Below, one piece after another: positions 31,539 through 33,674 of a stretch of DNA of 45,889 bases. Position 1 is the stretch's first letter. The number at the start of each line of letters is the position of its first letter. Source of the DNA: a virus (Duplodnaviria > Heunggongvirae > Uroviricota > Caudoviricetes); IMG/VR virus record IMGVR_UViG_2576861104_000010; one strand, written 5' to 3'. Below the pieces are notes generated by a model. The model was not told the origin of the DNA. It did not search any database and saw only the letters and a list, made by a program, of their open reading frames with translations. Both the position numbers and the translations under genes were made by a program.

Positions 31539-31555
31539 AAATTTATTAGAGCAAT
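31539..31555 (-). promoter_or_regulatory. C1 operator, perfect consensus, with an overlapping half-site
   Basis: Reverse complement is exactly ATTGCTCTAATAAATTT; CACTAATAAAT adjoins it. It sits at the left edge of the IS91-family insertion with no obvious target gene. Confidence 0.7.
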
Positions 31556-31559
31556 ATAC

Positions 31560-33450
31560 CAAAAACGTCATGAGCTACACCTCGAGTGTCCCCCTTACAA
31601 GACACAGAACGTCTGGCAAAAAGAGGTTCCACTCTGAAGCCACTGTCATGATAAAGCTCTCTGATGTTTGGCGCGCCACTGTTAGTAATGAGAACCACGG
31701 CAGCCTGGCGGCTGCAAATTGAAAACCGCCCCGGTTCGTCCTGTTGTTGCCGCACGCCCCGCAGAATATGTATGCTCTGAGGACCTGTTTTATTAAGGAC
31801 TCATCCCCTTATGTTGACCCGCAAAAGTATCGATACAGTTCTGCTCTCTGTTGGTGCTGAGAAGCTCTCACAACGAGAATGGGACTGGATGAAAATGCTC
31901 AAACCCATGGACCCACCACCTGCGATGGTGACGACCTCCATCCTGAAGCGCCGTGGCGATACAGCAGCCCTTACCCTGCTACAGGATACCGGGGTTTAAT
32001 CCATCCTCATGTTGTCCGGTTTTACTCCCCGCCCTCTGAAACGTCTGTTCACAGCCAACCAGTGCTGGACGTCCTTCCTGGATGCGGGCGGTCTGCGCGA
32101 TATCGAGGTTGAAGCCGTCACCAAAATGCTGGCCTGCGGCACACGGATACTGGGTGTAAAAGAGTTCGGGTGTGATAACCCGGACTGTCAGCACGTAAAG
32201 TACCTGACCAACTCATGCGGCAGCCGTGCCTGCCCGTCCTGCGGAAAGAAGGCCACAGACCTGTGGACAGCAACACAGCTGAATCGTCTTCCTGACTGCG
32301 ACTGGGTACATCTGGTCTTCACCCTGCCGGACACGCTGTGGCCGGTGTTCGAAAGCAACCGCTGGCTGCTGAATGACGTGTGCCGTCTGGCGGTGGAGAA
32401 TCTGCTGTATGCCGCCCGAAAACGGGGGCTGGAACCCGGTATCTTCTGCGCCATCCACACGTATGGCCGTCGTCTCAACTGGCATCCGCATGTACATGTG
32501 TCTGTAACCTGTGGAGGTCTGAATAAGCATGGTCAGTGGAAAAAGCTGAGCTTCCTGAAAGACGCGATGCGTTCACGGTGGATGTGGAATATGCGGCAGC
32601 TGCTTCTGAAAGCGTGGTCAGAGGGGATGGCAATGCCGGAGTCGTTGTCACATATCACGACGGAATCACAGTGGAGAAGCCTGGTGCTGAAATCCGGCGG
32701 AAAATACTGGCATGTGTACATGTCGAAGAAGACAGCCGGAGGGCGGAATACGGCACGCTACCTGGGTCGTTATCTGAAGAAGCCACCAATAGCGGCTTCC
32801 CGACTGGCTCATTACAACGGAGGGGCAAGCCTGAGCTTCCGTTACCTGGACCACAAAACGGGAGAAACGGCGACGGAAACGCTGACACAGCGTGAGCTGG
32901 TCGCGAGGCTGAAACAGCACATCCCGGAGAAGTTTTTTAAGATGGTGAGGTACTTCGGGTTCCTTGCCAACCGTGTGTGTGGAGAGAAGCTGCCGCAGGT
33001 GTACCGTGCACTGGGGATGGATAAACCGGAACCAGTGGCGAAAGTGTGCTATGCACAAATGGTGAAACAGTTCCTGAGTCGTGACCCGTTCGAATGCGTG
33101 CTGTGTGGCTGCCGGATGGTATACCGCCGGGCCATTGCGGGGCTGAATGTATCAGGGCTGAAGAAAAACGCGCGGGATATCAGTCTACTGAGGTATATGC
33201 CGGCCTGACACAGGCTAAGTGTGCCCGGGAATCGGTGAAAGTATAAAAAACAGCCTGTTACGGTATAAAAATCGACCATACAGAGAGGGAAACCACCGGA
33301 GTGGTGGGAAAAGCAGAAAGGCTCACGTGGCATAAGGCGTGGACAATGGTATCGACTGGTTTTTCAATTTCCTATACGTGAACATGGTCTTCTCATCGAA
33401 AGCATAGAATAATACAGCGTCCTTCCAACCGGCTTTGTTGGCCGGTTTTT
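31560..33450 (+). mobile_element. IS91-family insertion sequence (boundaries approximate)
   Basis: Contains one HUH-Y2 transposase gene and interrupts the phage sequence between a C1 operator and the oriR DnaA boxes; ends not determined. Confidence 0.5.
32009..33208 (+). CDS. tnpA: IS91-family rolling-circle transposase (HUH, two-tyrosine), 399 aa
   Basis: N-terminal zinc-binding Cys cluster (CDNPDCQH...SCGSRACPSCG), HUH motif HPHVHV, and YLGRY two-tyrosine motif. Confidence 0.8.
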   Translation: MLSGFTPRPLKRLFTANQCWTSFLDAGGLRDIEVEAVTKMLACGTRILGVKEFGCDNPDCQHVKYLTNSCGSRACPSCGKKATDLWTATQLNRLPDCDWVHLVFTLPDTLWPVFESNRWLLNDVCRLAVENLLYAARKRGLEPGIFCAIHTYGRRLNWHPHVHVSVTCGGLNKHGQWKKLSFLKDAMRSRWMWNMRQLLLKAWSEGMAMPESLSHITTESQWRSLVLKSGGKYWHVYMSKKTAGGRNTARYLGRYLKKPPIAASRLAHYNGGASLSFRYLDHKTGETATETLTQRELVARLKQHIPEKFFKMVRYFGFLANRVCGEKLPQVYRALGMDKPEPVAKVCYAQMVKQFLSRDPFECVLCGCRMVYRRAIAGLNVSGLKKNARDISLLRYMPA

Positions 33451-33453
33451 CAC

Positions 33454-33674
33454 TTATCCACATTATCCACTGGATAGATCCAATAATTAGGTCCATACAG
33501 ATCCCAATTAGATCCATATAGATCCCTGATCGTTGCAGGCCGCGCCACGTCTGGCCTAGAAGTGTATCGCGATGTGTGCTGGCGGGAAAACGATGTGTGC
33601 TGGCGGGATAAAAATGTGTGCTGACGGGTTGCTAATGTGTGCTGGCGGGATATAGGATGTGTGCTGACGGGAAA
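33454..33674 (+). promoter_or_regulatory. P1-type plasmid origin oriR: tandem DnaA boxes, GATC heptamers, five RepA iterons (incC)
   Basis: TTATCCACA and TTATCCACT at 33454-33471; AGATCCA-type GATC repeats at 33476-33532; five 19-bp iterons GATGTGTGCTGGCGGGAAA-like at 33571-33674, directly upstream of repA. Confidence 0.8.

Follow-up and report, generated by a model that had tools for sequence, protein, structure and literature searches.

IS1294 in place of part of the P1 backbone between the ban operator and the plasmid origin of a P1-like phage-plasmid

In the P1-like phage-plasmid sequence of IMG/VR record IMGVR_UViG_2576861104_000010 (the window, 45,889 nt), a complete copy of the insertion sequence (IS) IS1294 stands in place of 5,542 bp of P1 backbone, between an intact operator for the C1 repressor, Obanab, and the plasmid origin, oriR. 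It is probable that two insertions of IS1294, followed by recombination between the two copies, generated this arrangement. The alignments indicate that the window is a P1-like phage-plasmid whose plus strand corresponds to the minus strand of P1. In BLAST comparison against phage records, 30400–31696 aligns to P1 70174–68526 on the opposite strand and the sequence from 33379 onward aligns to the oriR-repA region of P1. The homology to P1 stops at 31696 (P1 68526) and resumes at 33379 (P1 62983), leaving P1 62984–68525 absent.

The absent segment, whose phage genes are non-essential, contains upfA except for its tail, mlp, ppfA, upfB, upfC, the operator Odmt/Op68 with the promoter Pdmt, uhr, hrdC, and dmt except for the last ~150 bp. 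The C1-regulated unit that was removed is the dmt operon (uhr-hrdC-dmt), whose own monovalent operator, Odmt/Op68, was also deleted. In those E. coli sequences that are most similar to the left flank (~97% identical) the whole segment is present and uninterrupted, and is 6.6–7.1 kb in length because dmt is longer there. Comparison with uninterrupted relatives, as recommended by the initial annotation of this sequence, identifies upfA-dmt as what was displaced. The suggestion in that annotation that the IS had displaced a C1-regulated gene is right in that P1 backbone including the C1-regulated dmt operon has been lost, but the operator of that operon was Op68, while the one that had been flagged controls ban.

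This leaves a phage-plasmid without its own Dam-type methyltransferase operon and without several genes of unknown function, in which plasmid replication, immunity control, and the ban helicase operon are kept. With the loss of dmt, the element may depend on the Dam of its host for origin function and packaging. Through the apparently intact, mobile IS1294, recombination is also possible with resistance plasmids, of which many share this IS.

The IS1294 copy

IS1294 is present as a complete element of 1,688 bp at 31692–33379 on the plus strand, its ends being the points where six independent contexts diverge. Those aligned were a Salmonella genomic island, three E. coli plasmids, pA163_p0, and pHN7A8, and every one of them diverges exactly before 31692 and after 33379. 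The copies in pHN7A8, pTB-nb1, p.E166-P1, and the Salmonella genomic island are identical to this one at 1,688/1,688 bp. The copy in pHN7A8, which interrupts tnpR, has been named IS1294 (PMC6052338), and it is through identity to this copy that the element in the window is identified as IS1294.

The transposase gene, tnpA (32009–33208, plus strand), is predicted to encode a 399 aa HUH/Y2 transposase that is identical to WP_000948429.1 and has 0 mismatches against the pHN7A8 protein. It matches PF14319 Zn_Tnp_IS91 (E 1.9e-21) and PF04986 Y2_Tnp (E 1.2e-57) in Pfam, and transpos_IS91 (NF033538) in NCBIfam with 309.6 bits against a cut-off of 125. The IS91-family rolling-circle element that the initial annotation had placed between the operator and oriR is borne out by these matches and by the mapping, and the alignment of IS1294 copies that it had proposed for defining the ends sets them at 31692 and 33379.

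In the published layout of IS1294 and the IS91 family, terIS is upstream of tnpA and is cleaved after 5'-GTTC, while oriIS is downstream of tnpA, beside a target of 5'-GTTC or 5'-CTTG. Here the left end, terIS (GAACCACGGCAGCC), starts with the invariant GAAC, which is GTTC on the bottom strand, and the 6 bp perfect hairpin GCAGCC-TGGC-GGCTGC (31700–31715) begins 8 nt inside it. The right end, oriIS (TTTCCTATACGT), is downstream of tnpA and is adjoined by the target tetranucleotide GAAC (33380–33383, plus strand), 5'-GTTC on the transferred bottom strand. On the tnpA-sense strand, the tetranucleotide after oriIS is either GAAC (6) or CAAG (3) in 9/9 insertion contexts. There are no terminal inverted repeats, the ends GAACCACGG… and …CCTATACGT being unrelated, nor is there a target duplication, the flanks being contiguous in the simple insertions of pZBEC21_01 and pHN7A8. 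Single-strand folding of the IS ends is no better than that of shuffled controls (z -0.14 to -0.59; -0.14 for terIS), so the hairpin of terIS rests on sequence only. In its length, its sequence, the GAAC or CAAG by oriIS, and the GAAC and hairpin of terIS, the element is the same as published IS1294; the location alone is particular here.

The intact open reading frame (ORF) and both ends, together with identical copies in many contexts, suggest that IS1294 is active. For IS91, the prototype of the family, the bottom-strand circle is the demonstrated functional intermediate of transposition. Rolling-circle transposition of this copy would therefore start from oriIS, on the right, and run leftward to terIS, which would mean that one-ended read-through past terIS carries the ban side and not the replicon. 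The mobilization of adjacent DNA by one-ended transposition, as raised in the initial annotation, would thus reach the ban side; oriR is not mobilizable in this way from this copy. Capture of the IncY replicon by this IS copy via one-ended transposition was considered and rejected, as oriR is on the oriIS side.

Two small ORFs touch the element. Upstream of tnpA, and inside IS1294, the ORF list has one of 62 aa (31811–31999, plus strand), present as the RefSeq hypothetical protein WP_000957857.1 in several plasmids and without a Pfam or NCBIfam match. This conserved ORF ends 9 bp before tnpA. The upstream regulator orf121 is described in a 2026 paper as unique to IS91, and the 62 aa ORF might be an analogue of it. 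The other is a hybrid ORF of 69 aa (31546–31755, minus strand), whose start is inside terIS of IS1294 and whose reading frame continues across the junction into the final 48 codons of dmt; though probably meaningless, it would be called by gene finders.

Origin of the arrangement

In the proposed history, IS1294 would first have inserted canonically before the GAAC at P1 62979–62982, in the 3' end of upfA, a step that is seen in a relative. A second IS1294 in the same orientation would then have inserted in the dmt 3' end, again before a GAAC. One IS and the intervening DNA would finally have been removed as the two elements recombined homologously, either within one molecule or between two copies of the plasmid.

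A synthetic junction between the 5' part of upfA and terIS has four full-length matches among the 5,426 complete E. coli genomes. In one of these, pZBEC21_01 (NZ_CP143628.1), IS1294 with 1 mismatch lies between …GCTAT and GAACATGG, and the stretch from the 5' part of upfA to dmt is kept to the left of it. The other three E. coli plasmids are known by the matching left-hand junction only. The insertion site, the orientation, and the target GAAC are the same in pZBEC21_01 as they are here, with the IS differing by 1 base. That plasmid, unlike the window, keeps the 5' part of upfA, mlp, ppfA, upfB, uhr, rdgC, and dmt, and has a p0111-type RepB replicon, not IncY RepA. In p.E166-P1, the same right junction is found with an unrelated left flank. 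Given the simple insertion in pZBEC21_01 and the right junction of p.E166-P1, the upfA insertion is best taken as the older event, preceding the dmt-side junction.

Without the interruption, the sequence across the left breakpoint is TAATGA|GAACC, and the break is exactly at the canonical insertion position. Two further breakpoints on the terIS side are available in P1-type backbones. That of pA163_p0 is directly before GAAC, 86 bp nearer to the operator, and that of pUTAK-8-2 is directly before CAAG inside ban, where the IS bridges a truncated ban and a truncated ppfA. Since the CAAG of pUTAK-8-2 has no terIS homology, selection of the target by the transposase is favoured over microhomology. 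The local frequency of GAAC/CAAG is 0.0084, from which 3/3 P1-backbone breakpoints would be expected at such sites by chance with a probability of ~6e-7. Random breakage at the left junction was rejected, as all three breakpoints abut GAAC or CAAG.

There are precedents for the proposed steps. In F33 plasmids, an extra IS1294 copy at GTTC and subsequent IS-IS recombination have been proposed (PMC6052338), and for IS801 in Pseudomonas plasmids a second insertion with IS-IS recombination was shown by sequencing. In both of these systems the deletion is beside the IS and the new junction is at a target tetranucleotide, as here. Both the element and the mechanism are already known, and nothing in this case goes beyond the published systems.

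Several points weigh against this history. Neither PLSDB nor the complete E. coli genomes yielded an intermediate in which upfA-dmt has a copy of IS1294 on both sides, and a synthetic junction representing simple insertion at that site in dmt has no full-length match among the latter. The 5 bp identity between terIS and dmt, GAACC (31692–31696, common to dmt and the IS end), equally allows a deletion in one step. The history is untraceable through siblings because the full arrangement is in one public sequence only, which is identical to this stretch. Furthermore, C1 binding, ban expression, and IS activity are all inferred from sequence identity.

A one-step deletion at the terIS end is unlikely, although part of the evidence fits it. 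From a single IS1294 in upfA, the DNA between the GAACC of terIS and the GAACC of dmt would have been lost, either through slippage or illegitimate recombination on the 5 bp repeat, or because the transposase cut after the GTTC of terIS and after its look-alike GGTTC in dmt and rejoined the ends. The GAACC does bracket the deleted segment on both sides, cleavage at terIS in IS1294 is published as falling after 5'-GTTC, and the single-copy precursor state exists where the two-copy intermediate was not found. The breakpoint of pUTAK-8-2, however, is before CAAG, which has neither homology to terIS nor the terIS cleavage sequence, and no published evidence was found for rejoining of a ter and a pseudo-ter that leaves the IS in place.

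It is highly unlikely that the junctions come from a deletion circle of the kind made by IS801. In this case IS1294 would have been at the GAAC in dmt, and one-ended replication that missed terIS would have gone round the ~90 kb plasmid and stopped at the GTTC of upfA, past oriR. IS801 makes such derivatives, which are bordered by ori801 and by a border GAAC or CAAG, and is published as traversing >40 kb; both junctions here fit the IS801 rule. Against this, ~90 kb of read-through would be needed, past hundreds of GTTC/CTTG sites, and the complete E. coli genomes yielded no example of the initial dmt insertion on which this route depends. The upfA junction also exists elsewhere as a plain insertion, and with unrelated left flanks. 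The two insertions of IS1294 with recombination between them remain the probable source of the arrangement.

The ban operator and the plasmid origin

The operator to the left of IS1294 is Obanab, formerly Op72ab, a divalent C1 operator at 31528–31555 on the minus strand that was identified by pattern search, by the P1 annotation (P1 68667–68694), and by ungapped alignment. In the pattern search the C1 consensus, ATTGCTCTAATAAATTT, is matched 17/17 by Obana (31539–31555, minus strand) and 15/17 by Obanb (31528–31544, plus strand, 2 mismatches), which overlaps the perfect site. The initial annotation was right as to the perfect operator, but what it called an overlapping half-site is a full second operator, the pair making up the divalent Obanab. 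There are 12 matches to the consensus with ≤3 mismatches in the whole window against 0.23 expected by chance, and the sites are therefore taken to be real operators. The ten other operator-like sites, with 1–3 mismatches, are at 1073–22038, grouped near P1 control regions, among them c1/coi and cre. An integrase ORF of the length of Cre is present at 1583–2614.

The operator bases are identical to those of P1 Obanab, and the 181 bp ungapped alignment that includes the ban promoters has one substitution against P1, which is outside the operator and upstream of it. In the P1 genome annotation, Obanab overlaps P1ban, P2ban, and the stop codon of dmt, and "controls expression of ban". Transferred from that annotation through the ungapped alignment, the promoters on the minus strand here would be P1ban (-35 at 31549–31554, -10 at 31526–31531) and P2ban (-35 at 31566–31571, -10 at 31540–31545). 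By coordinate mapping, both point to rising P1 coordinates, which is leftward on the minus strand of the window. The sequence, the divalent overlapping layout, the position over the dmt stop codon, and the operon downstream are all as in P1, unlike the dmt operon ending there, which is gone here except for 146 bp. Obanab is an ordinary operator at its ordinary place, and would repress leftward transcription of ban through C1. The cognate repressor is encoded by the c1 gene (3769–4620, plus strand), ~27 kb from Obanab, in which 281/283 residues are identical to P1 C1.100. In reading raw sequence, it is of note that the asymmetric operators of P1 can overlap the end of one operon and yet control the next operon, on the other side.

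Obanab is not orphaned, because it faces the ban operon, which is intact on the minus strand (27907–31525) as judged with ARAGORN, Rfam, Pfam, and synteny with P1 and pWP5-S18-ESBL-08_2. The initial annotation had seen no downstream gene in the orientation of the operator, which in fact heads this operon. All on the minus strand, the operon comprises a dicF-like region that ends in a terminator-like hairpin at 31343–31362 (terminator scan and P1 annotation), tRNA-Asn (30794–30872; ARAGORN, Rfam), tciA (29903–30337; Pfam TerB), tciB (29739–29903; Pfam DUF3927), a tRNA with the anticodon CAT (29553–29628; ARAGORN, Rfam), and the ban helicase gene (27907–29277), an ORF of 456 aa with both DnaB domains (Pfam DnaB/DnaB_C). 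No DicF or other named RNA scored above the Rfam threshold between the operator and the tRNA.

It is scarcely credible that this is an orphan operator whose C1-regulated downstream gene was displaced by an IS that may have mobilized or may affect the adjacent replicon: the IS does sit between the operator and oriR and P1 genes including a C1-regulated operon are gone, but the operator faces the other way into the intact ban operon, the lost operon had a different operator, Op68, that was lost with it, oriR is on the oriIS side and would not be carried by read-through, and oriR and the terminator of upfA are intact.

The distances on either side of IS1294 are larger than had been thought. The IS does not immediately follow the operator, as there are 136 bp of the dmt 3' end (31556–31691) before its start at 31692. 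The dmt methyltransferase remnant as a whole is 146 bp (31546–31691, minus strand; aligned to P1 68526–68676) and overlaps the operator by 10 bp. On the right, the initial annotation had put the end of the IS within a few bases of the DnaA boxes, whereas position 33379 is 74 bp before the boxes and 53 bp outside the annotated oriR. In this gap are the last 33 bp of upfA (33380–33412, plus strand; aligned to P1 62950–62982), with the stop codon at 33410–33412, and a terminator-like hairpin with a T run (33427–33447, plus strand; terminator scan), the upfA terminator, which has been kept between IS1294 and the DnaA boxes. There is no intact gene between the ends of the IS and either the operator or oriR. 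Overall, the initial observation is partly confirmed, and its interpretation partly supported.

By mapping of the P1 annotation, oriR is complete (33433–33674, plus strand) with its GATC cluster, and includes two tandem DnaA boxes (33454–33471); the five incC iterons are at 33571–33674. It is followed by repA (33731–34591, plus strand; Pfam Rep3). The oriR-incC-repA region has 97.3% ungapped identity to P1 61484–62983, with all of the annotated parts inside 33433–34591. oriR and repA are untouched, and so is the upfA terminator shielding the origin. The parA region (35237–36175) is only 64.7% identical to P1, against 97% for the adjoining oriR-repA, suggesting that the partition module joined to this replicon is a different one.

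Within the ban operon there are some further differences from P1. P1 and most of its relatives have tRNA-Asn and tRNA-Thr in tandem, whereas tRNA-Asn alone (30794–30872, minus strand) is detected here. The sequence 30824–30869, within the region 30521–30869, can be aligned with each of the two tRNA genes of P1, which looks as though recombination between them had merged the pair into a single gene. The plp region of P1 is shorter here by ~250 bp (P1 69775–70028), which are absent at 30545/30521. The tciA region (29873–30367) has no nucleotide match to P1, yet the TerB domain is kept in the protein. Between tciA and the tRNA there is a sub-threshold Rfam match to the small RNA STnc100 (30375–30494, minus strand; 35.8 bits against a gathering threshold of 47).

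Distribution of IS1294 and related deletions

IS1294 is widespread, with matches in 3,736 PLSDB plasmids and in 2,073 of the 5,426 complete E. coli genomes. In each of these two collections, ~44 records join IS1294 to a P1-type origin region. In most of these joins the IS is at a second upfA site, 131 bp deeper into the gene (P1 63114); the conjugative IncY plasmid pECO-6dfa is among them. No PLSDB plasmid or complete E. coli genome covers both of the junctions seen here together, and the exact left junction, as a 25-mer, has no match in the species-representative genome set. The pair of junctions is found only in IMGVR_UViG_2574180358_000005 of IMG/VR, which is 100% identical over 12.8 kb and is the same sequence, not an independent case.

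Across these records, IS1294 is beside P1-type origins at a minimum of three GAAC sites, that is at least P1 62983, 63114, and 63834, and oriIS always faces the origin. The loci concerned include 6001–11598 in pECO-6dfa, 4001–5688 in pUTAK-8-2, and 9651–11338 in pZBEC21_01. The IS is seen beside the origin on IncY and p0111 replicons, and also in a conjugative IncY plasmid of non-phage type, where IS1294 and IS26 flank the replicon module.

It could be conjectured that the 3' end of upfA, 50–900 bp outside the P1-type origin, is a preferred landing zone of IS1294 and that the IS is a portable boundary for replicon swapping, although this is quite unlikely. If it were so, the HUH transposase could target the single-stranded lagging-strand template beside the origin, and the P1 replicon module would have been swapped between phage-plasmids and conjugative plasmids through the IS boundary.

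The upfA/repA region is a recognized variable region of P1-like plasmids. In pSvP1 the methylation operon has been lost beside an IS91-family element, ISEc84, and there, as here, this P1 operon was lost next to upfA. The deletion in the window is smaller than that in pSvP1 or in pUTAK-8-2, and the tRNAs, the tci genes, and ban have been spared.

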